Of a DNA stretch of 45,078 nucleotides, positions 4,110-41,476 are shown one piece after another. How positions within the stretch are numbered: the first letter of the stretch is position 1; every line of letters begins with the position of its first letter. The DNA lies in assembly GCA_030648795.1 (NCBI GenBank), contig JAUSHC010000014.1, positions 1-45,078 on the forward strand. Direction: 5' to 3'. Source of the DNA: a bacterium. GTDB taxonomy: Bacteria > Patescibacteriota > Patescibacteriia > JACQSD01. The translations under genes were made by a program, and so were the position numbers. A model generated the notes under the pieces. That model was not told where the DNA came from and did no database searches. It was given only the letters and a program-made list of their open reading frames with translations.

Positions 4110-5078
4110 ATGAACGCATTACATCAATCTATCCTCGCCGCTATTACGTATTTTGATCTTTTCGATTATCCGTTAACCTCGACGGAGGTGTGGAAGTATT
4201 TGTGGCTCGATCGGTCAACACCGAGTGTTGATCAAAAAAAACACTCGGTGTTGAAAACGCCGTCACTATTTGCAGTGATCGAGGAGTTGGAAAAATTAGA
4301 GAAAGATGGTCGAGTGGTGAGTGGCAATGGATTTTACTTCTTACCCGGACGCGAGACGCTGATTAAGACGAGAAATTTTCGGCATGTTATTGCGTATCGT
4401 AAATGGCATAGAGCATTACGCGTCGTGCGGGTGTTGCGATGGTTCCCATTTATCCGCATGATCGGCGTTGCGAACACGCTCGCCTACGATAATGCGGATG
4501 AGGGGAGCGATATTGATTTATTTATTGTGACTGCGAAAGGACGCGTGTGGACTGCACGTTTTTTTATTGTGCTCTTTTTGCAATTATTTGGCTTGCGTCC
4601 GAACGTGAAGACTCGTCGTGACAAAATCTGTGCATGTTTTTTTGTAGACGAAGATCATCTTGATATTTCTAATCTCGCGCTACCCGGCGAACCGGATGTT
4701 TACTTGCATTACTGGATCGCAACCTTGTGGCCATTGTATAACCTAGATGGTGTGTACGAAAAATTTTTTGAAGCAAATGCGTGGGTTCAAAAGAATGTCC
4801 CGAACATTCACGCGATCGTTCCAAACATGTTTCGCCGTATTAGCCTAACAAGGGGCACCCTTGTATGCAACAAGGGTGCCCCTTGTAGTGTCTTTCCCGA
4901 ATCATTTTATCGCCGCCTGCAAGAACGCCGTTTTCCCGATGCGATCCGTACGCGACTTAGCAAAGACACCACGGTCGTCGCCAATGATCATGTCCTAAAA
5001 TTCCATGTCCATGACCGTCGTGAGGAGTATCGAAAAAAGTTTATTGAAAAAATGAGCATGTATGATGCGATGGATTGA
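4110..5078 (+). CDS. Hypothetical protein with Pol-beta-type nucleotidyltransferase-like motif and an N-terminal winged-helix-like region
   Basis: 322-aa ORF. The motif GVANTLAYDNADEGSDIDLFIV resembles the hG[GS]..x..D-h-D-h nucleotidyltransferase signature. It overlaps the downstream Wzy-like gene by 17 nt (operon). It contains two in-frame palindromic elements at 4215-4254 and 4848-4886. Confidence 0.5.
   Translation: MNALHQSILAAITYFDLFDYPLTSTEVWKYLWLDRSTPSVDQKKHSVLKTPSLFAVIEELEKLEKDGRVVSGNGFYFLPGRETLIKTRNFRHVIAYRKWHRALRVVRVLRWFPFIRMIGVANTLAYDNADEGSDIDLFIVTAKGRVWTARFFIVLFLQLFGLRPNVKTRRDKICACFFVDEDHLDISNLALPGEPDVYLHYWIATLWPLYNLDGVYEKFFEANAWVQKNVPNIHAIVPNMFRRISLTRGTLVCNKGAPCSVFPESFYRRLQERRFPDAIRTRLSKDTTVVANDHVLKFHVHDRREEYRKKFIEKMSMYDAMD
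4215..4254. repeat. Palindromic element, family A (AACACCGAGTGTT / AACACTCGGTGTT), inside a CDS
   Basis: Perfect 15-bp arms TCAACACCGAGTGTT (4215-4229) and AACACTCGGTGTTGA (4240-4254), with loop GATCAAAAAA. It is translated as STPSVDQKKHSVLK. The same 13-nt arms recur at 41445-41476. Confidence 0.85.
4848..4886. repeat. Palindromic element, family B (ACAAGGGGCACCCTTGT), inside a CDS
   Basis: Perfect 17-bp arms at 4848-4864 and 4870-4886, with loop ATGCA. The element is exactly 39 nt, or 13 codons (TRGTLVCNKGAPC). A second copy is at 33327-33365. Confidence 0.9.
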
Positions 5079-6360
5079 AAGATTATTAATACTTTTTATA
5101 TTCCTTATTCCATGGCAAGCAAGATTCATTTTGCGGGCTGGGGAGTTGGGTGATAGTTTTTGGGAATATGGAACGGTGGCACTGTATGCGACGGATGTTT
5201 TGTTTGTTGTGATTTTATTGTTGAGTGGAATATGGTGGATAAAAAATCAAAAATCAAAAATCAAAAATCAAAATGACAATGCAGAATTAAAAAATAACTT
5301 ACAACTTACTACTTACAACTTACTACTAATTACCGGTTACATAGCCTTTTCCATCTTCTGGTCTTTTGATAAAACGGTTTCTTTTTACGCGGCGTTGAAG
5401 TTTCTTGAAGGCGTTGCGTTATTTTTTATTGTACGAACGGTTCAATCTTACGAGGTCGGACCTCATAAGATGGGAGGTCCGACCTCGAGGATATTGTGGG
5501 CGTTTGTGGCGAGTGCGGTGGCGCAGAGCGTTCTTGCGATCGCACAGTTTTTCACGCAGTCCGTTTTCGCATGGCCGTTTTCCGGCATTGCTCCGCAGGA
5601 TCCGTCGGATCTTGGCGTGTCAGTCGTACAATTTGCCGATGAACGCTGGCTTCGCGCATACGGATCGTTTCCGCATCCCAACTTACTCGGTGCATTCATA
5701 GCGATAGCGGCGATCATTTTATTTACACAGTTATTTCGAAGTCGAGACGAAGAATCAGGAATTAAGAATCATGAATTAGGGACGTTAAAATTCATACTTC
5801 ATAATTCATACTTCATAATTCTTATTACCGGCTTATTCTTCACCTTCTCCCGTACCGCATGGATCGCATTTTTTGTTGGACTTGTTATCTACGCCATTCA
5901 GACAAAAGCATGGCGAGAAAAAATATTTTTACAACTCACTTTATTGCTCGTCGTTACGGGAACCATTCTCACCGTTTTATTTTTCCCACTTGTCCGTACG
6001 CGTGTTGGTGGGGGATCGCGCCTTGAGATACAATCGAATCAAGAACGCACCACCGGATATCGCGAAGCGATGCAACTCATTAAAAAACATCCATTCGTTG
6101 GCGTTGGCATCGGCAACTATACCGTCGCCGTCGCCCGCGAACTTCGCCTCCATGATCCTGTATGGTCGTATCAACCCGCACACAATGTTTTTCTTCTCAT
6201 CCTCTCCGAATTGGGTATTTTTGGATTAGCTTTATTTCTAATATTTTTTTGGCGATTAAAAAACTTACAACTTACTACTTACTACTACCACTTATCATCC
6301 TCTCCCTCTTCGATCACTCTCTTTGGGTGCTTCATTCGGGTATACTTCTTCTATGGTTGA
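5062..6360 (+). CDS. O-antigen ligase / Wzy_C-family polytopic membrane protein, apparently frameshifted near the 3' end
   Basis: It has about 10 hydrophobic segments and a FSRTAWIAFFVGLVIYA motif typical of the Wzy_C loop region. The frame-1 tail after 6263 (LQLTTYYYHLSSSPSSITLFGCFIRVYFFYG) is not membrane-like, whereas frame 3 continues with a hydrophobic ...LPLIILSLFDHSLWVLHSGILLLWLSMAL ending at 6395. Confidence 0.75.
   Translation: MMRWIERLLILFIFLIPWQARFILRAGELGDSFWEYGTVALYATDVLFVVILLLSGIWWIKNQKSKIKNQNDNAELKNNLQLTTYNLLLITGYIAFSIFWSFDKTVSFYAALKFLEGVALFFIVRTVQSYEVGPHKMGGPTSRILWAFVASAVAQSVLAIAQFFTQSVFAWPFSGIAPQDPSDLGVSVVQFADERWLRAYGSFPHPNLLGAFIAIAAIILFTQLFRSRDEESGIKNHELGTLKFILHNSYFIILITGLFFTFSRTAWIAFFVGLVIYAIQTKAWREKIFLQLTLLLVVTGTILTVLFFPLVRTRVGGGSRLEIQSNQERTTGYREAMQLIKKHPFVGVGIGNYTVAVARELRLHDPVWSYQPAHNVFLLILSELGIFGLALFLIFFWRLKNLQLTTYYYHLSSSPSSITLFGCFIRVYFFYG
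5242..5331 (+). repeat. Heptanucleotide tandem repeats inside the Wzy-like CDS
   Basis: (AAAAATC)x4 at 5242-5269. (ACTTACA ACTTACT)x2 at 5297-5324, followed by a degenerate ACTAATT. Translated as KNQKSKIKNQ...LQLTTYNLLLI. Confidence 0.9.
5451..5487. repeat. Palindromic element, family C, inside the Wzy-like CDS
   Basis: Perfect 14-bp arms CGAGGTCGGACCTC (5451-5464) and GAGGTCCGACCTCG (5474-5487), with loop ATAAGATGG. Translated as YEVGPHKMGGPTSR. Confidence 0.9.
5789..5820 (+). repeat. 14-nt tandem repeat (two heptamers) inside the Wzy-like CDS
   Basis: AATTCATACTTCAT occurs twice (5789-5802, 5803-5816), followed by a partial AATT. An imperfect complement GAATTAAGAATCATGAATT lies upstream at 5759-5777. 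Confidence 0.85.
6263..6290 (+). repeat. Heptanucleotide tract coinciding with the Wzy-like frameshift
   Basis: ACTTACA ACTTACT ACTTACT (6263-6283), then a degenerate ACTACCA. That is three full units, against four in the paralogous tract at 5297-5324. Confidence 0.9.
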
Positions 6361-8606: not shown

Positions 8607-11600
8607 GTGTCGCGTGAAGACATTATTCTTTTTACTATGTACCATCACGTTCGTAAATTGAAAGGCTCTACGGTGGATCGTTTGCATCAGTATTGTTGTG
8701 TGAAATATCCATCGTATGGTGCGTGGCATGAGCATCCGTATCACAGTCACACGCACTGGTTTATCTTTTTCATTTTTTCTATCGGATGGCTGATGGGAAT
8801 ATTTTTTCAGTTACATCTTTTCCCCGTTCGTTTTGCGGGAGCGGCGTCGTATTCATGGAATCAATCAAGTTGGGTTGGTGGAGTGACAACAAATAATCCG
8901 AATCATACATCAAATCAAACGGGTTGGACCCAGTACAGCGCGGTGGATGCGACCATCGCTACGAGTACTACATTGACGCTCGCGCAACAGAGCACGACCT
9001 TCACGGAAAATTTTACCGAAACTGCATATAAAGATTCTTCAAACACAACAACGCAATGGAATACCTATATTGAGTTTATCCGATTGACCGAAACTGATAA
9101 GTGGGCGTCGAAAGCAGTTTTTCCGTCGAGCTTTTCCGGTGGTGTTCTCATCCCTTCCGGTGGGAGCTCCTATGTGTACGGATTAAAGGGTACCGCATTT
9201 TGGCGTTACGACATTAGTGGTGATGTGTGGAACGACCCTCTTGACCCTGCAGACCCCACATCGATTTCGAGCAGTCTTGGTGCATCATCTGCGATTTATG
9301 TTGACCGCAATGCGCCCGCAATTTACGTGCTCGGAGGCTCAGCAAATTTTTATAAGTATACAATTTCCACGGACACTTGGAGTACGCTTGCATCAAATTC
9401 TAATGTTGCTTCCGTTGGCGCGTTAGGGTACCCGGGATCCGGTGATTGTATTTATGCTCTTTCTGGAACTTCTAGCTCTGGTAAACTCGATGCATATTCG
9501 ATAGACAACAATACTTGGAATACGAATTGCGCTGATCCAACAAATCCTCCTGCGGGAATCGGTACCGGCGTTTCTATGACGTGGGCAAACGTTGCCGGTT
9601 TTACCAACTCCCTTTTTGCATTTCGTGGTGGATTCAATTCAGATGATTTCTGGATGTATTCAATAACGAATGACAACTGGACGACACCTGATCCAGTAGA
9701 TCCTCCGAAAAATGTTGCTTCTGGCGGATCGCTTACGTGGGCAAACGTTGCCGGTGTGACGGATTACATTTTCGCAGATCCGGGGGATTCTGACCGCGAT
9801 GTGTGGGCGTACTCACTTTCGAATAACAATTGGACGACAATGTATCCGCAATGGGTGATTGAATCTTCTGCAACAGCGAGTGTTATGAATAATAACGGAT
9901 GGTCTGGTGGAGCAGGGTTCACCTATCCCGGTGCGGGGAACTATCTCTATACTGCGCACGGGGGAAATAGCACTGCATTTCTTCGTTTTGAACTTCCTTT
10001 AAATTATCAGACGCCAAAAGTTGTTCAATCAATAGCGGTTGATTCTACGACCCAAGCGATTGCATCCGCGACGTTGACCGCGACCTCGACAACTCCCGCA
10101 GGGACTGCAATCGCGTATTCGATGAGTCGTAATGGAGGGACGACGTGGGAGACTGTAACGTCTGGTAATGAGCTTACCTTTGCCGATTCCTCGGAGAAGT
10201 CCGATCTCCGATGGAAAGCAAGTCTTTCTACAACCGATGTGACAAAGTCGCCGACAATTACCAATGTTTCGATTACGTACAAATATTACCCCGCATCTAC
10301 AACACTCACGTCTTCTACATTTAATAGTGAGGCATCTACAACACAGGTAACACAAATGGCGTGGAGTGAAACGGTTCCCTCTGGGACGAACGTTCGTTTT
10401 CAGATCCGTACCGCGCCAGATAATGGTAGCGGAGCGCCCGGCACGTGGTCTGATTGGCTTGGCCCTACGAGCACAACAGACTACTATGAGACAACGCCAT
10501 TGGGTGAATCCGTGAATAGCGCGAACTCTTCTGACGCGAATGATCAGTGGATACAGTATAAGGCGTATCTCACTTCTGATGGAATAAGTACGCCAACACT
10601 TTCGGGCGCAACGCTTTCATATAATATCCTTCCTGCTACGCCGTCACTTTCTTCAAGTACGCATCCATCGCAAACAACATTTTATCCAAGCGCAACGCCT
10701 ACCATTACGATCACCGCAAGCACTCCAACGCCTGATCATTATCATTATCTTGTGAGTGAAACGGCGGGTTCCTCGACAAGCATATTTAATAATCATGCGG
10801 GAACGGTAGCGCCGAGCACTTCTTTTCCGATTACGATTGCGAGCGAAGGGACATGGTATGTATACGTAATAGCAAGCGATAGCGGTGGAACCAATTCCGC
10901 AAATCTTGCAACGTATACAATTAAGTATGATCCAAATGCACCTGTTGTGCCGACACTTTCTTTTGGAAGTATTACGACGTCTTCGATTACCGTAAGCGCG
11001 ACGAGCAGTGATAGTGGAGCAGGACTTCATGCGACGCCTTACTATTTTGAACGAGATAGTGGCGCAGCAACATCTGGATGGACTTCTGGGAGTTGGACGG
11101 ATTCCAGTCTTTCACCGAATAAGCAGTACTCTTATCGCGTGAAGGCGCGTGATGCAACTGCAACACCAAACGAATCATTATTTACGGCAGTGTCGCAGAA
11201 GTATACCGCTGCAAATACACCGGGAACTCCGACCATTTCAAGCGCAACGGCGACAACCATAACCCTTACGCTTAATGCAAACAGCAATCCGGATATAACA
11301 CAATTTTCCATTCAGGAATCATCGGGACAGTATGTGCAAGCAGGAAAGACTTTGAATACTACCGAAACATGGCAGACGCTCGCGCAGTGGGGAACGATAA
11401 CAGTGACGAGCCTTTCCGAAGATACACAATATTCTTTCCGCGTGCGCGCACGGAATGGTGATACTACGGTAACGAGTTTTTCTTCTTCCGCGTCAGGGTC
11501 AACCGGCGCAGGAGCTCCGCAAAATTTTCGCGCAACAACAATCCAATCATCGTCAGTCACAATTACTGCAGATGATCCAAGCTATACAGCCACCGCATAT

Positions 11601-13622
11601 TATTTTTCGCGAACAGGAGCGAATTCTGGATGGACGACGAATTACTGGATAGACTCTGGGCTTTCACCTAACGCTTCTTATACGTATAGCGTGAAGACGC
11701 GCAATGCAAGCAACGTTGAATCAACGAGCGCTTCGCTTACCGTGATAACCGCGGCGGAAGTTCCTTCATTATCATCGATTGATACGACCAAAATAAAAGA
11801 TACATCATTGGTAGTAGCGCTTGGATCTTCTTCTAATCCTGCGGGAACGGAATATGCAATTCGTGAAAAAGGCGTAAATACAAGTACCAACGCGTATGTG
11901 CAATCGTCGGGTGGAGCGCTTAGCGCGTTGGAGGTATGGCAGACATATACGAATTGGGGAGGGGCAACAGGCGTGACGGTTACTGGGCTTACGGCAGGCA
12001 CATCCTATACATTTGTCGTAAAGGCGCGTAACAGCGAAGGCACTGTGACGACAGAAAGTACATCGGTATCAGGAACAACACTTGCGATTCCAGGAGCACC
12101 TTCAGTAACGACAAGCGCAACAACGAAAAATCAAATTGTTTTCTCGCTTACATCAACGAACAATTCATTATCTACACAGTATGCTATTCGCGCTGTTACG
12201 GGAGATACGACGTCGTATGTACAAACGGGCGGTACACTTGATATTGATGCGGCATGGCAGACGGCACCGCAGTGGGGAACGGTTACAGTAACCGGGCTTA
12301 CCGCAAATACCGCATATACATTTTCAGTAAAAGGGCGCAGCAGCGCAGGATTTGAAACAACATTCGGAAGCGGAACAATGGAGAGCACGCTTGCTACGGG
12401 GACTCCTCGCGCGCCATCGGTTACCGCGCAATCGACATCATCTGTGCTTGTGACCATTGATAATACAGACATTGATCCGTCTTTTTCATATTCCATTCGT
12501 GAGATAACGGCAACGGGGCAGTATGTACAAACCAATGCGCAATTGGGGGGTGACCCTGCTCGACAAGATTACGCAGGGTGGGGAGGTGCGAGCGGTGTTT
12601 CGGTGCTTGCGCTTCTTCCAAGAACCTCTTACAGTTTTCGTGTTGGAGCATATAATCCTGCGACGGGTTTGACGAGTTTTGGCCCTGTCTCGGCAGCAGT
12701 AACAACGCCTGGTGGCGGTACTGCGGATTATACCGGTCCTACGGTGCCGACAAATATTCATGTTGATACGGTACCGACGGTAGTGCGTAACGGATCCTCC
12801 GTGCTTGGCGGGATACGTGTCACGTGGACTGATCCGACTGATGCAGATTTTTCTGCTGTCTATATTTATCGCGCGCCTACGACGACGGTCGTTAGTACGA
12901 CAAGTCCTATCCGTGTCGAGGAGGGGAGTGGAGTATTTTTTGATCAATTGGGACTTGTGTCTGAAAGATATTACAATTATTTACTTCGCTTTGACGATGA
13001 TAATGGCAACAGATCATATAGCGATACATTTACCGCACAAGCGCCATCATCCACAATTGAAGTAGAGGTGCCGCTTACACCATTACCGCTGGTCCCTGTT
13101 CCTCAAGCACCGTTAATAGCACCACCACCTACGACAGCATTGAGTATTCCTATTCCTACGGGTCCGCGCGCGCTTCCGTCAGTAAATATCAGAGATCTTA
13201 TTCGCGTGCAGCATCCGGTTACTACGCAGAGCATTATTGATTCATTTGTGTCGAGCCTGTCGCAACAGAAGTGGATACGCACGCAACTTGTAATCACCGA
13301 TACGAGTCTACGTATTGCTGGTGTGTTTGGGGGCCTCTATGATGTTCTACCAAAGGGGTCTACGGCAGGTGATAATCTTGATCCTGCAGTAGGAATTACC
13401 ATACGTTATAAGCTTGGCGATGCAGGGGGATTCCTTAAAGGGGGGAAGTTTCTACGACTTGGATACTTCAATGCTAATGCGGTAAAGAAAGAATGGGTAA
13501 TCATTGCCGACGCGGAACAAAATATTTCGGATAAAGTGTATGGTTCATGGACCGCAAAAGTTAGTAGAGCAGGAACGTATGGCATGCTTATTCTAGAGAA
13601 AAATAATAATGCAGTGCAGTAA
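8607..13622 (+). CDS. Giant surface protein 1 (1671 aa): N-terminal membrane anchor or signal, Kelch-like propeller, beta-sandwich modules, seven FN3-like repeats
   Basis: Uninterrupted 5-kb ORF with a GTG start and good SD. It has one hydrophobic segment (WFIFFIFSIGWLMGIFFQLHLF) followed by AGAAS. Domain details are in the sub-features below. Confidence 0.9.
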   Translation: MSREDIILFTMYHHVRKLKGSTVDRLHQYCCVKYPSYGAWHEHPYHSHTHWFIFFIFSIGWLMGIFFQLHLFPVRFAGAASYSWNQSSWVGGVTTNNPNHTSNQTGWTQYSAVDATIATSTTLTLAQQSTTFTENFTETAYKDSSNTTTQWNTYIEFIRLTETDKWASKAVFPSSFSGGVLIPSGGSSYVYGLKGTAFWRYDISGDVWNDPLDPADPTSISSSLGASSAIYVDRNAPAIYVLGGSANFYKYTISTDTWSTLASNSNVASVGALGYPGSGDCIYALSGTSSSGKLDAYSIDNNTWNTNCADPTNPPAGIGTGVSMTWANVAGFTNSLFAFRGGFNSDDFWMYSITNDNWTTPDPVDPPKNVASGGSLTWANVAGVTDYIFADPGDSDRDVWAYSLSNNNWTTMYPQWVIESSATASVMNNNGWSGGAGFTYPGAGNYLYTAHGGNSTAFLRFELPLNYQTPKVVQSIAVDSTTQAIASATLTATSTTPAGTAIAYSMSRNGGTTWETVTSGNELTFADSSEKSDLRWKASLSTTDVTKSPTITNVSITYKYYPASTTLTSSTFNSEASTTQVTQMAWSETVPSGTNVRFQIRTAPDNGSGAPGTWSDWLGPTSTTDYYETTPLGESVNSANSSDANDQWIQYKAYLTSDGISTPTLSGATLSYNILPATPSLSSSTHPSQTTFYPSATPTITITASTPTPDHYHYLVSETAGSSTSIFNNHAGTVAPSTSFPITIASEGTWYVYVIASDSGGTNSANLATYTIKYDPNAPVVPTLSFGSITTSSITVSATSSDSGAGLHATPYYFERDSGAATSGWTSGSWTDSSLSPNKQYSYRVKARDATATPNESLFTAVSQKYTAANTPGTPTISSATATTITLTLNANSNPDITQFSIQESSGQYVQAGKTLNTTETWQTLAQWGTITVTSLSEDTQYSFRVRARNGDTTVTSFSSSASGSTGAGAPQNFRATTIQSSSVTITADDPSYTATAYYFSRTGANSGWTTNYWIDSGLSPNASYTYSVKTRNASNVESTSASLTVITAAEVPSLSSIDTTKIKDTSLVVALGSSSNPAGTEYAIREKGVNTSTNAYVQSSGGALSALEVWQTYTNWGGATGVTVTGLTAGTSYTFVVKARNSEGTVTTESTSVSGTTLAIPGAPSVTTSATTKNQIVFSLTSTNNSLSTQYAIRAVTGDTTSYVQTGGTLDIDAAWQTAPQWGTVTVTGLTANTAYTFSVKGRSSAGFETTFGSGTMESTLATGTPRAPSVTAQSTSSVLVTIDNTDIDPSFSYSIREITATGQYVQTNAQLGGDPARQDYAGWGGASGVSVLALLPRTSYSFRVGAYNPATGLTSFGPVSAAVTTPGGGTADYTGPTVPTNIHVDTVPTVVRNGSSVLGGIRVTWTDPTDADFSAVYIYRAPTTTVVSTTSPIRVEEGSGVFFDQLGLVSERYYNYLLRFDDDNGNRSYSDTFTAQAPSSTIEVEVPLTPLPLVPVPQAPLIAPPPTTALSIPIPTGPRALPSVNIRDLIRVQHPVTTQSIIDSFVSSLSQQKWIRTQLVITDTSLRIAGVFGGLYDVLPKGSTAGDNLDPAVGITIRYKLGDAGGFLKGGKFLRLGYFNANAVKKEWVIIADAEQNISDKVYGSWTAKVSRAGTYGMLILEKNNNAVQ
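9100..10000 (+). other. Kelch-like six-bladed beta-propeller region of giant protein 1
   Basis: About 50-aa blades with a recurring aromatic-x-Y-x(4-6)-W motif: FWRYDISGDVW, FYKYTISTDTW, LDAYSIDNNTW, FWMYSITNDNW, VWAYSLSNNNW and a final AFLRF. Confidence 0.6.
10930..13040 (+). repeat. Array of seven FN3-like domains in giant protein 1 (two alternating subtypes)
   Basis: Subtype A: ...YYFxRxxxxxSGWTxxxWxDSxLSPNxxYxYxVKxR. Subtype B: ...SNPxxTxYxIxExxxxxYVQxxGxLxxxxxWQTxxxWGxxTVTGLxxxTxYxFxVKAR. The observed order is A-B-A-B-B-B plus a divergent terminal copy. Confidence 0.7.
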
Positions 13623-16600
13623 TTCTATGCAGTGTTTCGGGAAGCAGCGATACGCGCGACGATCATTATTCATCGCTTTTTTGAGCGCTGCTTTTCTTTT
13701 TATTGGATATCATGTTGATGCCTTGCGATGGGTAGTAGATACTCTTCCATATCCTGCTGGGAGTGTTACGGGACTTGTGGCGGCATTTGATCCGTCGGGG
13801 AATCCCACTGCTGCCCAGACTTCTTTAGGGAGAGCAGTATATTTATCGAGTACCGGTGCAGGGAGAAATTGGGCTGCAGAGGAAGTTATGGCGATCAGTG
13901 AATGGGTTTCCGGACGACCGGGATTCGCCTTTAACGGTGCAACACCAAGTATTATTGCGGGTGGTCTTTTCATGACGCGCGACGGAGGAGCGACGAACGG
14001 AATGTTTCGATGTAGCGATGCAGATTGGTCCTGTGAAACGCTTGGATATGGCGTGAGTAACTACGTAGGGGCACAGAGTGATCTTGTGTACGCAAACGGT
14101 GTCCCCATTATTGCCTATGATTCTGGAAATTCTGCAATGCATATTGCGTCGCGCGATGGAAATGGCAAAGGGAACGTGATGGCAGACAAGGACTGGAACG
14201 AGAAGTGGATTTATACGGATGGCATTAAACGACAATATCCCGCGCTTGCGCTTTATAATGGAAAGCCAATTGTTTTCTATTATCTTACGGTGGATAACGG
14301 TGCTACGGGAGAGCTCATGATGGCGTACTGTAGTTCGAATTGCGGTACCTATGGAACACAGACGGGCGCATCGTGGACAGAGGTTCGTTTGGATAATGCA
14401 TCCGCGAATATCGGACAGCGTATTGATGCGGAGGTATATGGGAATTCTATTTTTTTAACGTATGAGGATCGCTCGAGTGGTGGGATACGCTACGCGACGT
14501 GTAGTGCAAGTTGTTTGTCCGCAGGAAGCTGGCAGAATAAAATTACATTAACAACCCTTGGTCGTTCAAGTTATCCTGCACTCACCATGGATGCAAATGG
14601 TCATCCGCGGATTGCGTACTACGATACGCAAACACTTCAGCCGAAAATTGCCTCGTGTGACACCTCGTGTGACACGATACCGTCAAATTGGGCACGTGAG
14701 ACGGTGGACACAACAAGCAATCGTGGTGGGAATACGGATCTTCTTTTGGATGCAAATGGTTTGAAGCACGTGTTTTATGGGGAAGGGTTGCTTTATCATG
14801 CGGGGGAGAGCGTTAATGTTGCGCCAACTGCAACAGTAAGTGAAGGGGCTATTGTGCAAGGTGGTGGTGCATCTGGTTTGGTGACGTTTCAATTCCAGGT
14901 GAATGACGCAAATGGAGATAAGACGAAGGCACGTGTGGAGTACTCGATCGATGGTACAAATTGGTACCGAACATTTCTTGTGCCAGCGAGTACACGCGTA
15001 TCAACGGGAATTGCAACAACAGATAATGCTGAGTTTTCTATTGGTGCTGTTGATGCGATTGATACGGATAGCGGTACTGTAACGGTTACCACAGTATGGG
15101 ATACGAAGAATGCCGCGAATGGGAGTGGCGCGATCACTGTGGAAACGGGAAATATGCGATTGCGTGTACAAGCGACTGATGGAGAACTTACGAGCGTGCT
15201 CGCACAATCAGATGCTTTTTCTGTTGACAATGCGGTACCTAGTTCATTCACAAGTTTTCGTGCAACCGGTGCGACTGACTCAACGGTGACGCTCACGTGG
15301 GGAGGTGTTACTGACACGAATTTTACTCATTATACAATTTGGTATGGCACGGACGCAGCAGCGGTACGAGGAAAGCGTGCGAGTGCATGGGATGAGCGGA
15401 ACGATACGGCGCTTGCAAGCAGTACGGCGGGCGGTACAGTCATTACAGGACTTTCATCGGGTACCGTATACTATTTTTTCATTGAAGCAAGCGATCGCTT
15501 TGGTAATGCAACGCAAGTTGCGGAAGAAATTCCACGCGCGACTGCACGTCAACGTCGACCTTCTACACCTGCGCCCATCCCGACCCCAACACCAATCCCT
15601 GTTCCAGGGACAACACCTCCACCAACACAATACCCGGGTGACGCAAATTCGTGCCCAGGATTTTCATATAGTAGGTTGGATAGCAGCGGAAGACGTTATT
15701 GTCAGTTGAACAGCGAAGAAAAATGTAATTACAATTACCCAGGCTATCTTGATCAAACAAGCTACAATAAGGCAAATTGTCCGGCGCCGACACTAACTCC
15801 AGTTCTAGGGACTACGCCAATTCCGGTTCCCAGTACAACACCTCCGCCAATACATACGTGGACATTTTTAGATGGATCAAAAACGTCATTTATCCTTGCT
15901 CGCACCGATCCTGAATACACCAACTATATTACATCAATTGAAAATTTATGCCGTACGATTAAGCAAAGCGAATTTGTGTGGAGTACAGGGTCGGGCGATG
16001 CAAGCTCAACGAGCTTCGGAATTCCCGATTGTACAAAAGCTGTGCAGCTGAACCCCACGCCGCCACCGCCAATCTTGGTTCCCGATACTCCTCTTCCGCC
16101 GGCACCAATTCTCGAGTCGCAACCGCAAACCGAACCGCAACCATATGTAGGTGGTGGCGCGTTTGTCGATGAGACGAAAGATACATTTGCGGGAGCATAT
16201 GAAAATATGCGTTGGAATGCCGAATCGAATTTCTTAGAACTTGATACAACAAAAAAACAGGGGACGTATACTTCGCAGGTTCATAATGTCGGTAAAGTTT
16301 CTGACTGGAAGACGCTTGCATGGACACCGAATATGTTGAGCGAAAAAGCGCTGCCAAACGATGGAGCGCAAGAGGCGGGATATCCCGAAGGAAACGCGGA
16401 TATGACGGGGAACGTCCTTCTTCTGCATATGGATGAAGCAAAGTGGGATGGGACAGCCGATGAAGTGCGTGACGCATCAGGGAATGGAAATAATGGGAAA
16501 CGAATAAACGGAGCGAATACGAATACGGAAGGGAAAGTTGGTCGTAGGGGGGAATTTAATGGCACGAATGATTACGTTGATCTTTCAAAGGAGTGGGGGA

Positions 16601-19600
16601 TTGGGCTTTTTGGGAGTGGGTCCGCATCAACTCCAGACGCATTTACGGTAGAAGCGTGGTTGCGGCCCGGAACGCGTGCGTTACAGGACAAAAAAGCTGA
16701 GGATCAAGTCGCCGTCTATAATGGATGGGGCGGTGAGTTTAATCTCGGGTACATTAGCAAAGACGAAGACAGTGGCAAAGGACGGTTTCACTTGTCGGTA
16801 AATATTACAGGCGAGGGGTGGAAAGGAGTTACAAGCGATGTGGCATACGATCCGGCGGTTTGGTACCATGTTATCGGAGTGTATTCACGAACAGAAAGAA
16901 ACGCGATGCTGTTTGTGGACGGAGTACCAGCAGGAACTGCATCGTTCACAACAACTGGGCCTCTTCTTCATCCGGGGACATATCATCCTGCGACGATCGG
17001 AGCATATACAGCGTACACAAAGGTACGCTCTGCATTTTGGAAAGGCGCGATTGATGAAGTCGCGGTGTACCGCCGTGCGCTTTCCGAGGGCGAAGTGCGT
17101 AGTCGATATACTCGCAGCGCGTCTACTATTCGTTTGCAGGTACGATCGTGTGACGATTCGGTATGTGCGGGCGGTGAAAAAGCGGGTGGTGAAAAATTTG
17201 TTGGACCCGACGGGACAGCGAACACCTATTATGAAGAAACGCGAAAATCAGCAACGGGACTTCCCGAATTTTCATTGTCGAATGTTCCGTCCAATCAGTA
17301 TTTTCAATATCGTATTATTCTTGCAACTGACAAAGCTGATTTCGGATTAAACGTGCGTAGAGTCGCGGTCGCCTATGATGCGACGGAGGGTGGGGAAGGA
17401 GAAGCGCCATTACCTTCGCGTACAACAGTCGTATGGAAAGAAACGAGTCCAGCTGATTGGACAGAGGGAACAAAGGAAGGAGCTTCTGTTACCGGCACAG
17501 GAGATGCCGCATTATTGCAGTTACCGCTGCAAGAAGTAACCGCTGAAACAATCACACTTCCAACAACCGATACCATTACTGCAGCTCGCTTTACTGCGCA
17601 AGACAACGGTTGGGCGGTGGGAAATAACGGTACAATCCTCCACTGGAATGGAAACGCGTGGAGCACAGTATCATCGCCAACACTTGAGAGTCTTTGGGGG
17701 CTTACGCTTTTAGATAAGGACAACGGTTGGGCAGTAGGAAATAATGGAACCATCCTTCATTGGAATGGAAGCGCGTGGTCCGCATCAATAAGTGGTACGA
17801 CGTCGGCGCTTTCCGGTGTCGCATTTACCGCGGAAAATAATGGCTGGGCCGTTGGTGACGAAGGGACCATCCTCCATTGGAATGGAAGCGCGTGGTCAGT
17901 CGCGACGAGCGGTACGACGACAGTACTTTATGGTGTCGCATTTACTTCCGCAAACGACGGTTGGGCGGTGGGAAATAGCGGGACGATTCTTCATTGGGAT
18001 GGCAATGCGTGGAGTGCAGAAACATCTCCGACATCGTTCGCGCTTTTTGCTATTGGACAAGGGCAGGGGGGTGCGCTTTTTGCAGTTGGTGATGGAGGGG
18101 TAATTGTGAAGCGAGAACAAACAGGGGGGTGGGTTGCCGTTCCTTCAATGACTCCAACGCCGCTTCTTGCTTTTGCGAGTAGGCCTGGAGGGATGAGTGC
18201 CGTTGTCGGTGACTATGGAGAGGCGCTTGAAAGTACGGATGGTAGTACGTGGGCATCGTCACTGTTTGATATTCAAGAGGCGCTCTTTACGGTTGCATTT
18301 GCGGGAACTGATCAATGGATGATGGGAACGAATGGCGCTGCATTCCGGGTACGGAGAGGAGCAGGACAGAAAGAAGGTACATTTACATCCGCAGTACGCG
18401 ATGCAGGTGTAATTCCGTTATGGCAGCGAATTCAGTGGGAAGGGCAGGCACCTGCAGGAACTACTGTTCGCCTACAGTTTGCGACAAGTAATAGCATGGA
18501 GGGACCATGGCAATTTGTTGGTCCTGATGGAACCGCTCGTTCATTCTACACCGACGCGAATAAGGCTTTATGGGCGGGACATGGATCGCAGCGTTTTGCG
18601 CGCTACCGCGTTCTTTTTACGGGTGATGGCGAAAGTATTCCTACGGTTGATGCGGTTTCTGTTTTCTATACGTATGATCCCGACGCCTTACCGCTTACGC
18701 CAACTCCTTTAGCACCAAAGGACGCGGTGCTTCTTAATAGTAATCCTGTGCTTTCGTGGAGTGGTATTCCGCCAGCGACAGAGTATATCGTGGAAGCGAA
18801 CTGGGTAAACCCACGCGTTTCCGCTGATCCTGTGCGAACGACAGAAACGCAGATTTCCTTTACGGATTTTGTTTTTCATGATGTTCCTGTATTTGTACAA
18901 GAATCAGATTCTATTGCATATAGTTGGCGTGTTCGTGCGGAAGCGGATGCAGGAGTGAAGAGTGATTGGTCATCTCCGCGTACGTTTACCATCGATACAA
19001 AAGTTCCGGAAGCGCCAGCGCCCGTAGCACCAGAGGAAGGAGCAACATTTTCTACAGCGCCGACGTTTCAATGGAGCGCGGTTACCGATGCAAATGCTGA
19101 AGCGATTTCTTATACGTTTACGCTTAGTAAGGCGGAAACCGGTGCCACTCCGCTTCTTCAATTTCCTCTTACGGGAACGACGTTTACTCCCACTTTCCCT
19201 CTTTCTGATGGAACATATCTTTGGGGAGTGAGTGCAAAGGACAAGGCAGGGAATACGAGCGCGGCATTCAAGGCGACGTTTACCGTTAAAGCGCCAGTAC
19301 CGGCGCCGACCGCTGCACCGTTTGGTCTTACGACAGAACAAACAGCGACCGAACTTACGTTACGATGGCAAGATGTACCGCTCGGTGGCGATACCTATAC
19401 TATTGAAGTCGCGCATGCGTGCGTTGGCGCAGAGGGTTGTGAAGAATTCATTAATCTCATTCCCTCTTTGACACAACAGGACAAAATAATAATTCCAGTC
19501 GTGCTTGATCTGTCGAATGAAGAGGTGGGAGATTATTTTGTACGCGTATTGCGCGTAAATGAAGGTGGAAGAGGGCCGGCAGTACAGCAGAAGTTTACTG

Positions 19601-22600
19601 TGCGTCGTCTTATTGCTCCGACTGTGTCGTCTCTTGTGCAGACGCACGTATTATGGCGCAATGATGATGGCGACGAACAGAGCGCAACAAAGATGGTGGA
19701 TGAAGACACTGCCATTACCGATGTTCGTGCAGGAATTATCAACCGTCTTCGTGCGCAGGTAGCGAATGAAGGCGAAACAGTATCTGGATCCTTACACTAC
19801 GCGTTGCAGTATGCGATAAGAAGTGATACGTCCTGCGATGCCGTTCCAACGAATGCGTGGGCAACAATTCCGACGCAAGCGGCAGAGAATCAATGGGGAC
19901 TTGCCGATTCCACTCATTTCATTGATGGTGCTCTTGCCACGAATCTTCCTCCCGTTATGAGCGATCCTGAAGGAGCGGCGTTTATTAATGGAGCTCTACA
20001 CGACACAAAGAGCAGAAGCGCAGCTCTTGCGCTTAACGCTCACTCATACACAGAGTTTGAATATGCGTTTAGTACGGGCGCGGATGTTGCGAGTGGCGCT
20101 ACCTATTGTTTCCGGTTGGTGGACGCGCAGAAAGCTGGCGATGTGGAAAAGTTACAACTTACGAGCGGACAGGGGAGAGCTCTCTCTACTGCGGTAATTG
20201 ATGCGGCAGGCGAGTTTCTATATTTTGGAACATTTGAAATTCCAGCAAAGATAATTAAGATTCGTCTTTCTGACTTTTCTTATATTGCTGCAAAGCAGCT
20301 TACGGGGCGTGACGGAGAATTAAACAATGCGGTCATTGATACATCGAGTGGCTTTGCTTATTTCACCACGCAGACTACACCGCAGAAGCTTATTAAGATC
20401 CGTCTTTCTGATCTTGCACAAGTAGGTTCATTGACGCTTACATCTGAAGAAATATTTGGTCCGCTTCTTATTGATAACCAAAATAAAACGCTTTATGCCG
20501 GCATACTTTCTAATGCGTCAACAGCGCCGGCGCGCGTTGAAAAGATTCGGCTCACTGATTTTACCATTGAAGATACTTTTACATTTAACGATGGAGAAAT
20601 TCGCCTTCAGAATACGGCAGCTATTGACGCACAAGACGGTCTTGCCTATTTCATTATTAAAAAGAAATTTGGTTTTGATGAACTGGTGAAAGTTCGTCTT
20701 TCTGATTTTTCGCGCATAGGATCGTTGTCACCGCAACCGGAAGATGTCGTATTAGAGACACCCGGTCCATTAGCGGGGAAGGAGCATACTCTGCAAGCGT
20801 TCATCATTGATGCGGCGCATAATGTTGGCTATCTCACGACGACAAGTACACGAAACGATACGAAACGGATCGTAGCAATTCGTCTTTCCGACTTTACGCG
20901 TGTTACAGCAACAGACCTTACGCTTACCAATGATGATGTAAATGATGTGCTTGCGATTGATCGTGTTAACGGTTTTGTATACATTGGCACTGGATCATCG
21001 GGGATTCTTCAAGTACGTCTTTCGGATATGCAGCAGATTGACGCACTCAATTTTGGATTTCTTTTAGGGAATCCCATTGCCCTTGATAATGATCACGGCG
21101 CTGTGTATGTCGGTACCTTGGCAGGTGCGGTGAATCGCTTTTATTCTGCAGACGCTACGCGAACTCTCTCTGAATACCGGCATTATGCCGAAGTCACGGT
21201 TGCGAAAAAGGTATTGTTACCGGAACAGCCGGTGCTTTCGCCGTTGCCTGAAGGACCGACTAAGTCTCTTCCTGCTATTTCTTGGGCGCCTGTCGCAAAC
21301 GCGGCGCGATATGAGGTGACGGTAACGAAACTAAGCGATGACAGCGTGCGTTTTACTGAAACGATTACACAACCCGATGATACGACTGCGCCGATGACGG
21401 CGACGTTGCTCAATGACAAAGTGCTTTCTGATGGAGAATATCTTGTAAAAGTTCTTGCGGTGAATACAGAAGGAAAGGGAAACGATTCATCGGTTGCGTC
21501 TTTTGTGTTCGATGGTACGGCTCCTGACGCGCCAGAGCTTAACACGCTTTCAATGAAGCCGACGAGTACTATTCCATCGATCACGTGGCTTCCATCAGAA
21601 GGAGCGTCATCCTATACAGTTGTTGTAACAGCGCTGAACGATCCAACGATACGTTATTCAGAAACACTAACACAACCTCAATCAGAAGATCCCATGACGA
21701 GGCTATCATCGACATTGCTTTCTGATAAACAGATTGTAGATGGGACATACACGGTCGCTGTTACCGTTACGGACGAAGCGGGAAATACGAAGACGTCTGA
21801 AGAACAGTTTGTTCTCGATAGAGAAAAACCTGTAGCACCGACAGAGCTTGTCCCGACAGGAACGTTGGAAGTGTCACCGACAACTCTTTCTTGGAGCGCA
21901 GTTTCTGATATAACTGATTACAGGATAGTGTTTGCGAAAAAAGAGGGGGATATAATTGCATATAATACGCCACTCTTTGATGACACAGTGCAAGGTGTTA
22001 CGTTTGAATTACTTTCTTCACCGTCTGATGGAACGTACGGTTGGCGCATGTACGCTCTTGATGCAGCAGGAAACGAAAGTGATCCTATTGAGGCAGTCTT
22101 TACCGTCAAGACACCAGTGCCGCCGCCAACCAGCGTGCCCGTAGATCCAAAAATACAGCAAGATGAGAATACGGTAACAATGCAGTGGGGAGATACCAAG
22201 GATCTTGGGAATGATACGTATAGCGTGCTTGTTTCGCACGATGGTGATTTTTCTCAAGTAATAGATACGCTTTCAAAAACAGGATTGAAGTTGAAAGATT
22301 TGCCGCTTACATTTGACTGGTCGAATGAAGATGATGGGACATTCTACGCGCGCTTCTATCGTGAAAATGAGGGTGGCAGAGGACCAATCACTACATCAGC
22401 GTTTGTCGTCGCGCGCGCAGGAGTTGAAGAACTGCTCGTCCTTGATGGGTGGGGATATGAGCAAACGATCAAATTTGAAGGACCAACACCTTTGAATGAA
22501 TATCAGGCACAGATTACACTTGATGCGACGTTTGATTATACAAACGCAGCTCCAGACGGCGCTGATCTACGATTTGTAGATGCGGATGGAAATGTTGCGT

Positions 22601-25600
22601 CGTATTGGATTGAACAATGGAATCCAGAGGGCGCGTCAACCATCTGGGTGAGCGTGCCACTTAAAGGAACCCGGTCGCTTGATCTTTATTACGGAAATTC
22701 TGAAGCTGAAGCGACGTCAAATGTGAATGATACGTTTGAGTTTTTTGACGATTTCAATGTACCTGACGCAGGTGGATTTGGATTTAATTCTGGTACTCGG
22801 CATCGTGATGAACCAAAGTATTATCCACGTTGGACAGTACAGAAAGGAACCTTCGATATTAAGGACGGAACATTGCGTAACTGGTTTGGCGACGAAGGGG
22901 GAGGCGATACCATTACCATTGATTCGATTGTAAGCCGTCCAGGATACGCGGTTCGTTCGCGCGTCCTTGAAGATCATCAGCGACGTTACCCCACCATGTT
23001 TTTGGGATGGCAAGGAGATTTCTTTATAAATGATAAGGGGCAGGAGCGACCCGATAACTATTATTTTATTCAATTGAATGCGGCGGATCAAAAAATTTAT
23101 CTTCGGAAATTTATTAATGGTGTAGTGGCCACACTGGCAGAAAAATCTATTCCAGCACTCGAGCTTTCGAAGTGGTATGCGTGGGAATTACGCTGGGAAT
23201 CAGTAAACAAACTTTCCGCAGAACTCTGGGGGAACGATGGGGAGATTCTTGCAGTGCTTTCCGGTACCGTTGATGAAGGATGGATCACAGGACAATACGG
23301 ATTTCGCGGTATTCGCGGCGTAAGTAATACGATTTTCGACGATGTGCTCGTACGAAAGTATTCTGCAGGAACTGCGGATGATTTGACGCCGCTTCCGCCG
23401 TCAGCGCCGCGACTTCTTGAGCCGGCGAATAAAGACATTGTGGATGCTCTTCCGAAATTAACGTGGGAGGCGAATAGTGCCGCCGTTAATTACACTATTG
23501 ATCTTCGCGATAAAAATGGCGTGATTGTTTCTTCTATTCCTGGGAAACTTACACCATTCACTACTACAAAGGCGTTCTTGGAGATACCCGCAAGTGCTTT
23601 GAAGAAAGACGGAGTATACACATGGCGCGTTCGCGTGAAGACGTCAACGGGCTTAAGCGATTGGTCAGAAACACCGAGATTCACTCTTGATACGGAAAAA
23701 CCGGAGAAGCCGCAATTTATATCTGCGCAAACAGAACCGACGCAACTGCCAGTAACACTCGAGTGGTCGGAAGCGCGTGATGCAATATCCTATGTCATTA
23801 CGATAATGAATAAAGATGACCCGACGATTACGTTAATCGAGCAGCTTGCCGCAGCAAGTGAGTTGAACTACACCATTTCTCGTGATGTGTTGCCTGGCTT
23901 TATTGATGGAGAGTATATCGCGACTATCGTTGCCGAGGATGTAGCAGGGAACCAGAGTGCAGAAGATACAATGACAATCACCATTGATACGACTGTGCCT
24001 GAAAAGCCTGTATTTGATAATCTTCCAACGACGCCTGTACGTATAGTGCCGAATCTCGAATGGAATCGTGTAGAAGGCGCAAGTGCGTACGATATTACTG
24101 TTACGAAGACAGACGACCTATCCTTTGTAAAGATTGAGGAAACAATTACAGAATCTTCGGGGAAGAATATTCGCGCGAAACTTCTTGACGATAAGACGCT
24201 TACTGATGGGACGTATAACATCCTTCTTGTTACGCGGGATGCGGCAGGAAATACGGTAGAGACAGCTGCCTCATTTACCATCGTAACTCCGCCGAACATC
24301 CCGGAACTTTCACTCCCTGATAATGAGAAGTACATACATACACTCCCCACGCTTTCGTGGAACGCAGCAACGGGTGCAACATCGTATGTACTCACGTTGA
24401 AAGGAGCCGTAGAAAGAGAAGAATCAATAACGGCAACATCGATCGACCTTTCCTCGCTTTCTCCCGCCCTTCCTGATGGAGAATATATGTGGTCAGTAAC
24501 GGCAAAAACCGTGACAGCAGCAAGCGAACCTTCGGTGCCGCGAGTATTCACGCTTGATAGACAGTCGCCGCAATCGCCGATAAACATTGCACCGGAAAAT
24601 GGCTCTCTCTATCAAATTGCGCCGAGACTTGCATGGGAAAATGCTTCTCAAGAAGATGACGTAGATGTTTCGTCTTTTACAATTACGGTGACGACTGATG
24701 CGGATATCAATTTTGATCAGCCGATTTCGAGTCTCGATAGCGAAAAGAAGGAGTTGTTTTTCCCATCATTGGGAGAAGGGAAATACCGTTGGCATGTTGT
24801 TGCACACGACAAAGCAGGAAATGCGAGCGATCCGTCTTCCGCTGCAACATTTACCATCGCATATCCTACGGACGCGCCACTTCCTCTTTCCCCGCAACAA
24901 GGTGAAACAGTAAATAGTACGGTGGTTGTATTCCAATGGACGGACGTGAGTCGTGAAGTACGAAAAGCAGCGTATAATCTTACACTCATAAAAAAGAACG
25001 CAGAAGGAGGAAATAGCGTTATCACAACACTTGAAGGGGTACAGGGAACGGAAGCGAACTATACATTTGCGGAAGACGGAGAATACGAATGGACGGTTGT
25101 CGGTATTACCGATGGCGTGATTGGAACACCTTCAGCGATCGCATCTTTCACCATTGATCAATCGACCGAGGCTTCTGTTGACGTACGACGTTTGATTATT
25201 TATGAGCACGCGCCGCCATCATTCTTACCGGTCTATCAGCCGGGATGTGGAACGTTGGGGGATAAGGCGTGTTCGGAGGATAAGAAGCTTATCGTTGAAC
25301 AAGATCCATCAGTCATACTTCCTGTTGCAAAATCATGGAAAGTTGAAACAATAACACAGGAGGAACTTCGTGGATTGCCACGGGTACGCGGAACCGTTCT
25401 CACGGATTCTTCCGGTCACGTAAAGACGACGCAGCGCATTATTGGATTTATTGGGAGAATTTATGATGTGAGTGGTATACTTACAAATGCAAAAGTTCTT
25501 ACAATTTCGTACGACCCTTTCGTGAAGTCCGTGCTTTTGAAGCCTGGATATAAATTGGCGCCTCTCTATTTTGATCACAAGACGAATCAATGGAGTGTCG

Positions 25601-33067: not shown

Positions 33068-33793
33068 ATGGATAAAAAATTTGCTCAACAAATTCTTGAA
33101 AAAACGTGGCGTGATTATGACGCGATCGCTTCTTTATTTTCCGAGACCCGAGAGCGTGTATACGATCTCGAGCCCTTGGTTTCTAGCGTAAAGAGCGGTG
33201 ACACGGTACTTGATGTAGGATGTGGTAATGGCCGTTTGCTTGGGGCGCTACCGGTGGGTGTGCAGTATGTCGGATGTGATACGAGTGTGCAAATGATTGC
33301 GATCGCAAAGAAGCGATGTGCAATTTATAAGGGGCATCTTTGTAAAAAACAAGGGTGCCCCTTGTGTGTACGTTTCGTTCTGGGTGATGTGCTTAGACTC
33401 CCTTTTCCCGACGCATCATTCGATCATGTCTTCGCATTGGCCGTGCTTCATCATATCCCAAGTACTGCTTTACGGCAACAGGCAATATCGGAACTGGTGC
33501 GTCTTGTAAAACCTGGCGGTCGGATTACGATAACCGTATGGAATCTTCGGAGTTTCTATTGGATGAAACGCTACCGATTATGGCAGTTGTTTTTTGGGTT
33601 GCATCCGCAAGGATACGATCGTGGCGATTGTTTTGTACCATGGAAGCGAGGAGTCGAAAAGCCAATTATGCGCTATGTACATGCATTTACGGGATGGGAA
33701 TTAGCGAAATTATGTATAAATGGAGGACTTTCCCTTATTGCGCAATCACATGGGCGAAGCCACATTGTGGTTGCAACGCGCCCCGTTGTCTAA
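33068..33793 (+). CDS. Class I SAM-dependent methyltransferase, Trm9/ALKBH8-MT-like
   Basis: Motif I is VLDVGCGNGRLLG. The motifs ...RLPFPDASFDHVFALAVLHHIPS..R, GGRITITVWNL, DCFVPWK and RYVHAFTGWELAKL follow the order of the yeast Trm9 motifs (HFSxTR, DVGCGNGKYLG, FDFAISIAVVHH, FVPW, YRYYHLF..GEL) as I recall them. Its ATG lies 1 nt from the divergent Elp3 start. Confidence 0.65.
   Translation: MDKKFAQQILEKTWRDYDAIASLFSETRERVYDLEPLVSSVKSGDTVLDVGCGNGRLLGALPVGVQYVGCDTSVQMIAIAKKRCAIYKGHLCKKQGCPLCVRFVLGDVLRLPFPDASFDHVFALAVLHHIPSTALRQQAISELVRLVKPGGRITITVWNLRSFYWMKRYRLWQLFFGLHPQGYDRGDCFVPWKRGVEKPIMRYVHAFTGWELAKLCINGGLSLIAQSHGRSHIVVATRPVV
33327..33365. repeat. Palindromic element, family B, inside the methyltransferase CDS
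   Basis: Arms ATAAGGGGCATCTTTGT (33327-33343) and ACAAGGGTGCCCCTTGT (33349-33365), with loop AAAAA. The three C-to-T differences in the left arm still allow G:U pairing. The element is 39 nt and is translated in a different frame (YKGHLCKKQGCPLC) from the 4848 copy. Confidence 0.85.
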
Positions 33794-41444: not shown

Positions 41445-41476
41445 AACACTCGGTGTTACGCACAACACCGAGTGTT
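41445..41476. repeat. Palindromic element, family A, at the thyA stop codon
   Basis: Perfect 13-bp arms AACACTCGGTGTT (41445-41457) and AACACCGAGTGTT (41464-41476), with loop ACGCAC. The right arm overlaps the thyA stop codon by 2 nt. No U-tract follows on either strand. Confidence 0.85.

Follow-up and report, generated by a model that had tools for sequence, protein, structure and literature searches.

The window analysed here covers positions 1 to 45,078 of contig JAUSHC010000014.1 (assembly GCA_030648795.1), from a bacterium of the Patescibacteriota, and it carries two 39-nt hairpins, at 4848-4886 and 33327-33365, each of them inside a protein-coding gene. With a probability of roughly 0.85, this hairpin is a doublet of repetitive extragenic palindromes (REPs), similar to the REP doublet forming hairpins (REPINs), and belongs to a REP-associated tyrosine transposase (RAYT) system of a clade from the candidate phyla radiation (CPR). 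The same palindrome brackets a RAYT gene in four other genomes, and its dispersed copies reside mostly within genes. An earlier account, made from the letters of the window only and referred to here as the sequence-only reading, had described the family without the RAYT link that explains it.

The repeat unit and its probable transposase

The first copy reads ACAAGGGGCACCCTTGT-ATGCA-ACAAGGGTGCCCCTTGT, with a 5-nt spacer between arms that are complementary at 17/17 positions. The second copy, ATAAGGGGCATCTTTGT-AAAAA-ACAAGGGTGCCCCTTGT, has an exact right arm and a left arm with C>T changes at arm positions 2, 11 and 13. Both the perfect hairpin with 17-bp arms at 4848-4886 and the second 39-nt copy, with three C>T changes in its left arm and read in another frame, had been described by the sequence-only reading, and both descriptions are borne out. 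The alternative folds it proposed, two small hairpins or one long hairpin, are likewise both real when the DNA and RNA are folded. The features are as follows, with no strand assigned to repeat units or spacers and with folding energies in kcal/mol.

4110..5078, + strand: host gene 1, a 322-aa protein of a Patescibacteria family named 'predicted nucleotidyltransferase' (NTase) by some sources
4848..4864: REP unit that forms the left arm of doublet 1 (ACAAGGG-GCA-CCCTTGT); its stem has 7 bp and its loop 3 nt
4865..4869: spacer ATGCA, the loop of the long hairpin in doublet 1; the spacer is AT in the orthologous loci L048 and L006
4870..4886: REP unit that forms the right arm of doublet 1 (ACAAGGG-TGC-CCCTTGT), reverse complementary to the left arm at every position
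33068..33793, + strand: host gene 2, a 241-aa class I S-adenosylmethionine (SAM)-dependent methyltransferase that matches Methyltransf_11
33327..33343: degenerate REP unit that forms the left arm of doublet 2 (ATAAGGGGCATCTTTGT) and departs from the consensus by three C>T changes
33344..33348: spacer AAAAA of doublet 2; the spacer is AT in the orthologous loci L051 and L011
33349..33365: REP unit, right arm of doublet 2, the exact consensus ACAAGGGTGCCCCTTGT
Single 17-mer: DNA fold -5.4, as a 7-bp stem with a 3-nt loop
Copy 1, sense: RNA fold -33.1 (z -7.4), DNA fold -21.6
Copy 2, sense: RNA fold -25.9 (z -8.2), DNA fold -12.3
Copy 2, antisense: RNA fold -16.7, DNA fold -9.5

As judged by sequence comparison, the unit of the family is a 17-nt mini-palindrome, ACAAGGG-TGC/GCA-CCCTTGT (ACAAGGGKSCCCCTTGT). 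The 39-nt unit claimed earlier has to be given up, because the length and sequence of the spacer differ in almost every copy; spacers measure 0-15 nt, and orthologous copies are 36, 39 or 42 nt long. An exact scan for ACAAGGGTGCCCCTTGT across 596 Gb of species-representative genomes returned 46 loci. Since about 70 single matches are expected by chance (2 x 596e9 / 4^17), isolated 17-mer matches in unrelated taxa are meaningless, and it is the clustering of matches that differs from chance. There are 17 exact 17-mers on 9 contigs of the metagenome-assembled genome (MAG) CAYHPG01, 8 in the Zambryskibacteria MAG PCXL01, 7 in Patescibacteria REEB12 JAGWIS01 and several each in further Paceibacterota, Yanofskybacteria and unclassified MAGs, most of them arranged as inverted pairs 0-15 nt apart. 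Within the window, the degenerate 17-mer gives 8 strand-matches against 0.17 expected from shuffled sequence, and 0/100 shuffles reach 8. Doublets are 34-49 nt long, and 27 of the 28 that were compared are inverted pairs, the exception being L048 with two direct copies. The view that this is an inserted repeat and not convergent coding sequence is upheld, as the 17-mer occurs in many unrelated genes and in intergenic DNA, in several genomes and in differing frames.

A REPtron consists of a RAYT gene flanked on both sides by the same repeat (PMC3116915, PMC3337134, PMC5581495). In L035, L044 and L041, 17-mers about 660-700 bp apart enclose an open reading frame (ORF) of 208-218 aa, and the copy in L036 was added by tblastn. 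All four loci are from Patescibacteria, and in each an exact 17-mer lies within 10-40 nt of the start and of the stop of the gene. The flanking 17-mer is identical to the left arm of doublet 1. The bracketing was found for the family in these four other genomes, not at the window locus.

The bracketed ORF matches Pfam Y1_Tnp at 30-34 bits (gathering score 23), and both an HUH motif (MPNHFH) and a catalytic Tyr motif (SAYIHxNP) are invariant. The AlphaFold model of P0245, a RAYT bracketed by this repeat (B-type), has a mean predicted local distance difference test (pLDDT) score of 86.6. Its best PDB match by Foldseek is 4ER8_A (E 8.4e-7, TM 0.70), followed by the TnpA proteins of ISDra2, IS200 and IS608. 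The 4ER8_A entry is the E. coli TnpA-REP, described as 'REP associated tyrosine transposase bound to a REP hairpin'. It is the fold search that settled this match, as a single-sequence search against PDB found nothing and a profile search reached 4ER8 only at E 0.92. Several members of the family carry the JGI name 'REP element-mobilizing transposase RayT'. What is shown is the co-location of gene and repeat; the RAYT may bind, cleave or mobilise the repeat.

The RAYT family comprises 4755 protein clusters at E<=1e-10. Two samples of 80 RAYT relatives each were studied; Patescibacteria supply most of them, and Chloroflexota and cyanobacteria some. A short hairpin (stem 5-8 bp, loop 1-5 nt) recurs on both sides of the gene in 39/80 and 35/80 relatives, with a sequence own to each gene; the sample behind the 35/80 came from a search with one RAYT that was saturated by the generic YCLMPNHF pattern and did not return the closest genomes. 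The REPs of the nearest RAYT relatives, CAGAAGGTGCCCTTCTG and CAGATGGTGCCCATCTG, have a GG-TGC-CC centre in common with the present repeat family, which is termed family B. At least two further RAYTs with other REPs (ACAAAGAGACTCTTTGT; GCACGAAACTAAGTTTAGTGC) are encoded by CAYHPG01.

It has also been noted that RAYT genes often hold an in-frame copy of their own REP, as at 3346-3362 in L036 and in L078, L087, L076, L113, L114 and L117. In B-type RAYTs this copy comes after about 130-190 nt of the gene, in the loop ...LGKT(K/R)G(A/T)..., and in other relatives it is found at about 460-490 nt.

The MAG CAYHPG01 is labelled 'uncultured Gammaproteobacteria bacterium ERP119705_co14_260'. Close orthologues of both host genes are present in it (L006, L011), and in each the element occupies the site that it has in the window. 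The label seems to be mistaken, and the MAG looks to be a CPR relative close to the source organism. Many other 'Gammaproteobacteria' and 'Nanoarchaeia' labels among the RAYT matches may be wrong in the same way.

Residence inside host genes

The sequence-only reading had raised the question of whether copies are intergenic or intragenic and which frames they occupy. Among the 26 doublets of all fetched loci, 19 fall in open frames of 150 codons or more and have 30 or more codons to either side. As this equals the 73% obtained for random 39-nt windows from the same loci, genes are neither avoided nor preferred by the repeats. L035:2731, one of the 19, is a RAYT flank within a spurious ORF, and the exceptions to intragenic placement are mostly RAYT-flanking copies. 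Nine hosts are confirmed by Pfam, namely pyruvate kinase, UvrA (L043), a UvrD/PD-(D/E)XK helicase-nuclease (L045), DUF4012, Dus, Mur ligase, PfkB kinase, ComEC and PGI, and the element is often within the domain match itself.

All six reading frames are used by the dispersed copies (TRGTLV/TRVPLV, KGHPC/KGAPC, QGAPL/QGCPL). The 17-mer has no stop codon in any of the six frames and encodes small peptides rich in G, P, T, K and C, so that survival in frame is easy. Doublets of 34-49 nt are all in continuous frames. No frame-shifting intragenic copy was seen among the fetched loci, which favours translation through the element over its removal. The length of a doublet modulo 3 was tried as a predictor of intragenic location and proved uninformative, the true inserted length being one that includes changes in the flanks.

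In host gene 1, for which Pfam gives no match to the window protein, doublet 1 starts at codon position 1 (phase 0) of ORF 4110-5078 and encodes TRGTLVCNKGAPC. Most close NTase-like orthologues, and outgroups, have the native segment RRVDA(T/F)P.LQ(K/R)I.EWK..LF.ESF at this site; in the L050 orthologue the native sequence is DAFPTLQKITEWKSKL. The window has RRISL, the 13 element residues and SVFPESF, or 18 residues in place of about 17 native ones, and the majority of orthologues are without the element. The earlier description of 13 codons encoding TRGTLVCNKGAPC is correct, but the site is not a clean in-frame gain of 13 codons, as native residues were lost.

The same boundaries are occupied in other ways elsewhere. 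L048 has two direct copies of ACAAGGGGCATCCTTGT with AT between them, and L006 has a pair with both loop triplets flipped relative to the window, so that a comparison of the window with L048 and L006 shows the loop triplet of each arm flipped (GCA<->TGC) at identical boundaries. In L049 another hairpin, ACATGGGCACCATGT...CATGGTGCCCATGT, is present at the same boundaries and has the GGGCACC centre in common. A third variable site of the NTase-like family (alignment columns about 270-290) reads ...LWPLYNL-DGVYEKFF in the window. P0002, P0003, P0004 and P0010 have a 5-6-residue insert there, PE(P/H/R)VEGQ(P), the DNA of which is not clearly palindromic.

In host gene 2, doublet 2 starts at codon position 2 (phase 1) of ORF 33068-33793 and touches 14 codons, YKGHLCKKQGCPLC. 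The element had been placed between the post-motif-I region and the ...GDVLRLPF motif, and this position is right. Fifteen of 18 methyltransferase orthologues have no element and read ...AI|PLP..., with the empty site in L053 being ATT|CCA CTG CCG GGC|GTG. The window has 42 nt in place of 12 nt, giving a net gain of 10 codons, so copy 2 is no clean insertion of 13 codons either, 12 nt of native sequence having been lost. The L051 and L011 orthologues have 36-nt versions. L052 has a 42-nt variant, ACAATGGGCACCTTTGCA-CCGCAT-TGCAAAGGTGCCCATTGT, whose arms are perfectly complementary, although each arm alone is no longer a good palindrome. In the AlphaFold model of the methyltransferase (pLDDT 86), element residues 87-100 lie between a helix (74-89) and a strand (100-105), and residues 90-97, inside the element, are the only segment with pLDDT <50. 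According to this model, the peptide of doublet 2 is in a disordered surface loop.

Element-free orthologues, which the sequence-only reading had proposed for comparison, thus exist for both host genes, and the syntenic 21-kb relative L050 has none of the family B repeats. Y1 transposases are expected to produce no target-site duplication. Comparison of filled with empty sites revealed none at either gene.

The current proposal is that the RAYT would act on single-stranded DNA, most plausibly that of the replication fork, where it would recognise the small hairpin, cut it and rejoin it. REP units or doublets would then spread in trans without target-site duplication. In tiny, gene-dense genomes most landings would hit genes, and the survivors would be the insertions that keep the frame and sit in tolerant loops, with selection retaining those that are in frame and loop-compatible. 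The element would simply be translated, and the resulting peptides would span TRGTLVCNKGAPC or YKGHLCKKQGCPL. Later changes would consist of flips of the 3-nt loop, spacers altered in frame, native codons lost alongside and point decay of the type seen in window copy 2.

Two further families of hairpin doublets are present in the window. Family A (unit AACAC-YSR-GTGTT) is found at 4215-4254 and 41445-41476. The copy at 4215-4254 is in the same NTase-like ORF, where it forms a clean in-frame gain of 13 residues relative to L050, and the L049 orthologue has it at the same site. Family A is probably the REP of another RAYT. Family C (unit GAGGTC-S-GACCTC) is found at 5451-5487, as an in-frame insert YEVGPHKMGGPTS in a Wzy-like ORF that is absent from the L050 orthologue, and at 44185-44218, as a degenerate intergenic copy. 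REPs that flank RAYT genes in L117 (ACAAGGTCCGACCTTGT) and L088 resemble it. The idea that a spacer is target DNA caught between two independent REP insertions was considered and rejected; the family A site is suggestive (empty GAAAAAATT, spacer TCAAAAAA), and the two family B sites give it no support.

Alternative explanations

A number of observations weigh against a REP doublet mobilised by a RAYT. No RAYT gene was found within the 45-kb window, and the B-type RAYT is absent from the fetched contigs of CAYHPG01, the closest relative. The only NCBIfam match of the bracketed ORF is REP_Tyr_transpos (NF047646), at 37-46 bits against an equivalog cut-off of 80; scores below this cut-off mark it as a distinct RAYT clade. 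Spacers differ between nearly all copies, and the copying of one master REPIN predicts otherwise. No conserved GTAG/CGTC end tag is fixed among 70 copies, in whose flanks the 3' base is A in 64%, the next base is G in 37% and the 5' flank is T in 44%. The filled sites have lost 12 to about 39 nt of native sequence, and precise cut-and-paste by a Y1 enzyme would not do this. Element-bearing orthologues are scattered in the neighbour-joining trees, with the same two sites occupied; these trees are star-like and poorly resolved, and they fit a single old insertion with losses as well as repeated insertions. Finally, stems at orthologous sites are identical at 26-28/28 positions (93-100%), compared with 73-77% over 180 nt of flanking coding DNA.

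This last point appears to need homogenisation or selection beyond plain selfish decay. Recent re-insertion, homogenisation or selection may lie behind it. The differing hairpins of L049 and L052 at the same insertion sites, together with the loop flips, may reflect either in-situ evolution or replacement. A speculative extension of the RAYT account, which we regard as unlikely, is that REP-RAYT systems in CPR/Patescibacteria moved their niche from intergenic DNA into genes. The hairpins would then be kept as a domesticated intragenic structural element and not as tolerated junk, and the REP would have been shaped to be open in six frames with loop-compatible peptides, the cause being either homogenisation by the RAYT or selection at the DNA or RNA level. 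This extension draws on the conserved stems, on the re-occupation of sites by different REP families and on the REPs inside RAYT genes.

Among the rival explanations, the one that survives best, improbable as it is, holds that the hairpins are functional cis-elements, whether co-opted REPs or independent of them, under selection for RNA or DNA structure within genes. Proposed roles include a pause in translation that allows co-translational folding, a site for RNase III or for mRNA stability, and a replication or recombination signal. The hairpins are indeed highly stable (RNA folds of -33 and -26 kcal/mol, z about -8), their stems are conserved beyond the flanking codons, and the same sites hold different hairpins in different orthologues, as in L049 and the window. 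Against this, the host genes are unrelated, the element sits wherever a loop tolerates it, many close orthologues fare well in its absence, and placement in genes is at its random expectation. Across the whole window Rfam gives 0 families at gathering score, with 4848-4886 drawing only sub-threshold matches to generic hairpins.

Base-pairing can be argued on both sides. The arms of the 28 doublets are almost always exact reverse complements, and where the REPs are variants, in L036 and L052, the change in one arm is matched in the other, so complementarity is kept even in variant doublets. This is automatic, however, if the genome's current REP is present twice in a doublet, in opposite orientations, or if the doublet is copied whole. 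In doublet 2, the sense strand pairs at all 17 positions of the left arm, three of these pairs being G:U or G:T, and the three changes keep pairing on that strand only. The sequence-only reading had noted that these C>T changes preserve G:U pairing, which is true of the sense strand; its further hint of selection on RNA structure is weak, because G:U follows from any C>T change in a stem of G-C pairs. For three transitions to be C>T throughout, and none of them G>A, the chance is ~1/8. Among these three, GGCAC>GGCAT is also seen in L048 and L051, in other genomes and another gene, and may be an inherited variant in copy 2. Other degenerate copies (L014, L015) have true mismatches on the sense strand. 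Across copies, changes that could preserve G:U pairing give mixed outcomes, with few degenerate copies to draw on.

Far less probable still, even when taken jointly, are mobilisation as a MITE (miniature inverted-repeat transposable element) by a DDE transposase and local template-switching or inverted duplication with no dedicated enzyme. The inverted arms with their short spacer, the native sequence lost beside the insert, and the loop-triplet flips between orthologous copies, which are typical of hairpin-mediated minute inversions, would suit a local origin. Local events cannot, however, yield an identical 17-mer in many genes and genomes, and the same 17-mer brackets a Y1 transposase gene in four of them. 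The target-site duplication expected of a DDE-mobilised MITE is lacking in the filled-versus-empty comparison of both genes, and no DDE transposase was seen adjoining any copy. Native coding sequence, in the form of a conserved or convergent palindromic peptide motif, or an assembly artefact would fit the frame kept in both window copies and the peptide common to the close orthologues P0003, P0005 and P0122, but this is effectively refuted by the frame statistics (the same DNA read in six frames as six peptides) and by the intergenic RAYT-flanking copies. Against it, too, most orthologues are without the element, which is present at the same sites in independent assemblies (Logan runs, ENA, NCBI MAGs).

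Genomic setting and comparison with known systems

The gene content of the window is that of an ordinary chromosome, including UvrA, a C39 peptidase, a Wzy-like protein, GroEL, a radical-SAM enzyme, a methyltransferase, MiaA, GatB, phosphoglucomutase, thymidylate kinase and dihydrofolate reductase. The closest homologues of both host proteins are from Patescibacteria, several of them named Candidatus Uhrbacteria, and the only record of the window's own protein is in a 5-kb Logan contig from run SRR13727527. Three consecutive giant ORFs at 8607-13622, 13609-25752 and 25749-30638 (1671, 4047 and 1629 aa) span 22 kb. Matches to fn3, bacterial Ig-like and BNR-type domains were found in the first and the third, the two that were scanned, and in L050 a giant ORF also begins at the orthologous position.

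A palindromic octamer, GCGATCGC, occurs at 5536, 15491, 25135, 32673, 33122, 33299 and 38215. These 7 occurrences, against 1.6 expected and with 0/100 shuffles reaching 7, amount to a mild enrichment. Its proximity to both copies raised the suspicion of cyanobacterial HIP1/SDR-type repeats, which was dropped as all homologues are Patescibacteria/Uhrbacteria-like.

A large RAYT clade is widespread in CPR genomes, with a mini-hairpin of its own bracketing each member. Within such gene-dense genomes, housekeeping genes are the main residence of the repeats, which would be translated there. For annotation, such elements account for lineage-specific inserts of 10-14 residues and for very stable intragenic hairpins, which might otherwise be taken for motifs, recoding signals or assembly errors. 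They also offer a natural experiment on which protein loops tolerate insertions.

To our knowledge, work on REP/REPIN-RAYT systems has dealt almost exclusively with Proteobacteria and has treated the repeats as extragenic. No paper linking REP or RAYT with the CPR was found in the searchable library. The E. coli REP/BIME (bacterial interspersed mosaic element) and P. fluorescens REPIN systems (PMC3116915, PMC3337134, PMC5581495, PMC3479197) are alike in their dispersed short palindrome, inverted doublets, repeat-bracketed Y1/HUH gene, 4ER8 fold and lack of target-site duplication. The present family differs from them in its 17-nt unit, the lack of a fixed GTAG tag, variable spacers of 0-15 nt, a RAYT below the NCBIfam cut-off and a CPR/Patescibacteria host; it is also mostly intragenic, as are both window copies, and not extragenic. 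The relatives of the RAYT clade outside the CPR are in Chloroflexota and cyanobacteria, which resembles, by distribution alone, the 'Group 4' of Bertels et al. (PMC5581495).

The IS200/IS605 insertion sequences (TnpA of IS608 and ISDra2) have an enzyme of the same superfamily, which recognises small hairpins on single-stranded DNA and leaves no target duplication. They hold their own transposase between differing left and right subterminal hairpins and are mobile as a whole; here there is apparently one copy of the gene, and the hairpins alone are dispersed. Another likeness, in lifestyle only, is with the Rickettsia palindromic element RPE-1, which Ogata and colleagues reportedly described in 2000 as a palindromic selfish element that lies in frame in genes and is translated, surface regions tolerating it. 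RPE-1 measures about 100-150 bp and has no known dedicated transposase, whereas the present elements are 34-49 bp and have a RAYT partner.

The closest precedent for residence inside genes comes from Di Nocera et al. 2013 (PMC3733652), who described intragenic GTAG/CGTC REPs in Opitutus terrae, Thauera and others, along with the Rickettsia elements RPE-4 and RPE-6. Those REPs are alike in being single or dimeric in-frame copies that add short peptides, and their hosts include uvrA and uvrD, as with the UvrA of L043 and the UvrD-like protein of L045. They differ in sequence, end tag and phylum. The intragenic REP lifestyle is hence already known; in those genomes the intragenic copies are a minority of a mainly intergenic family, whereas here they are the majority.

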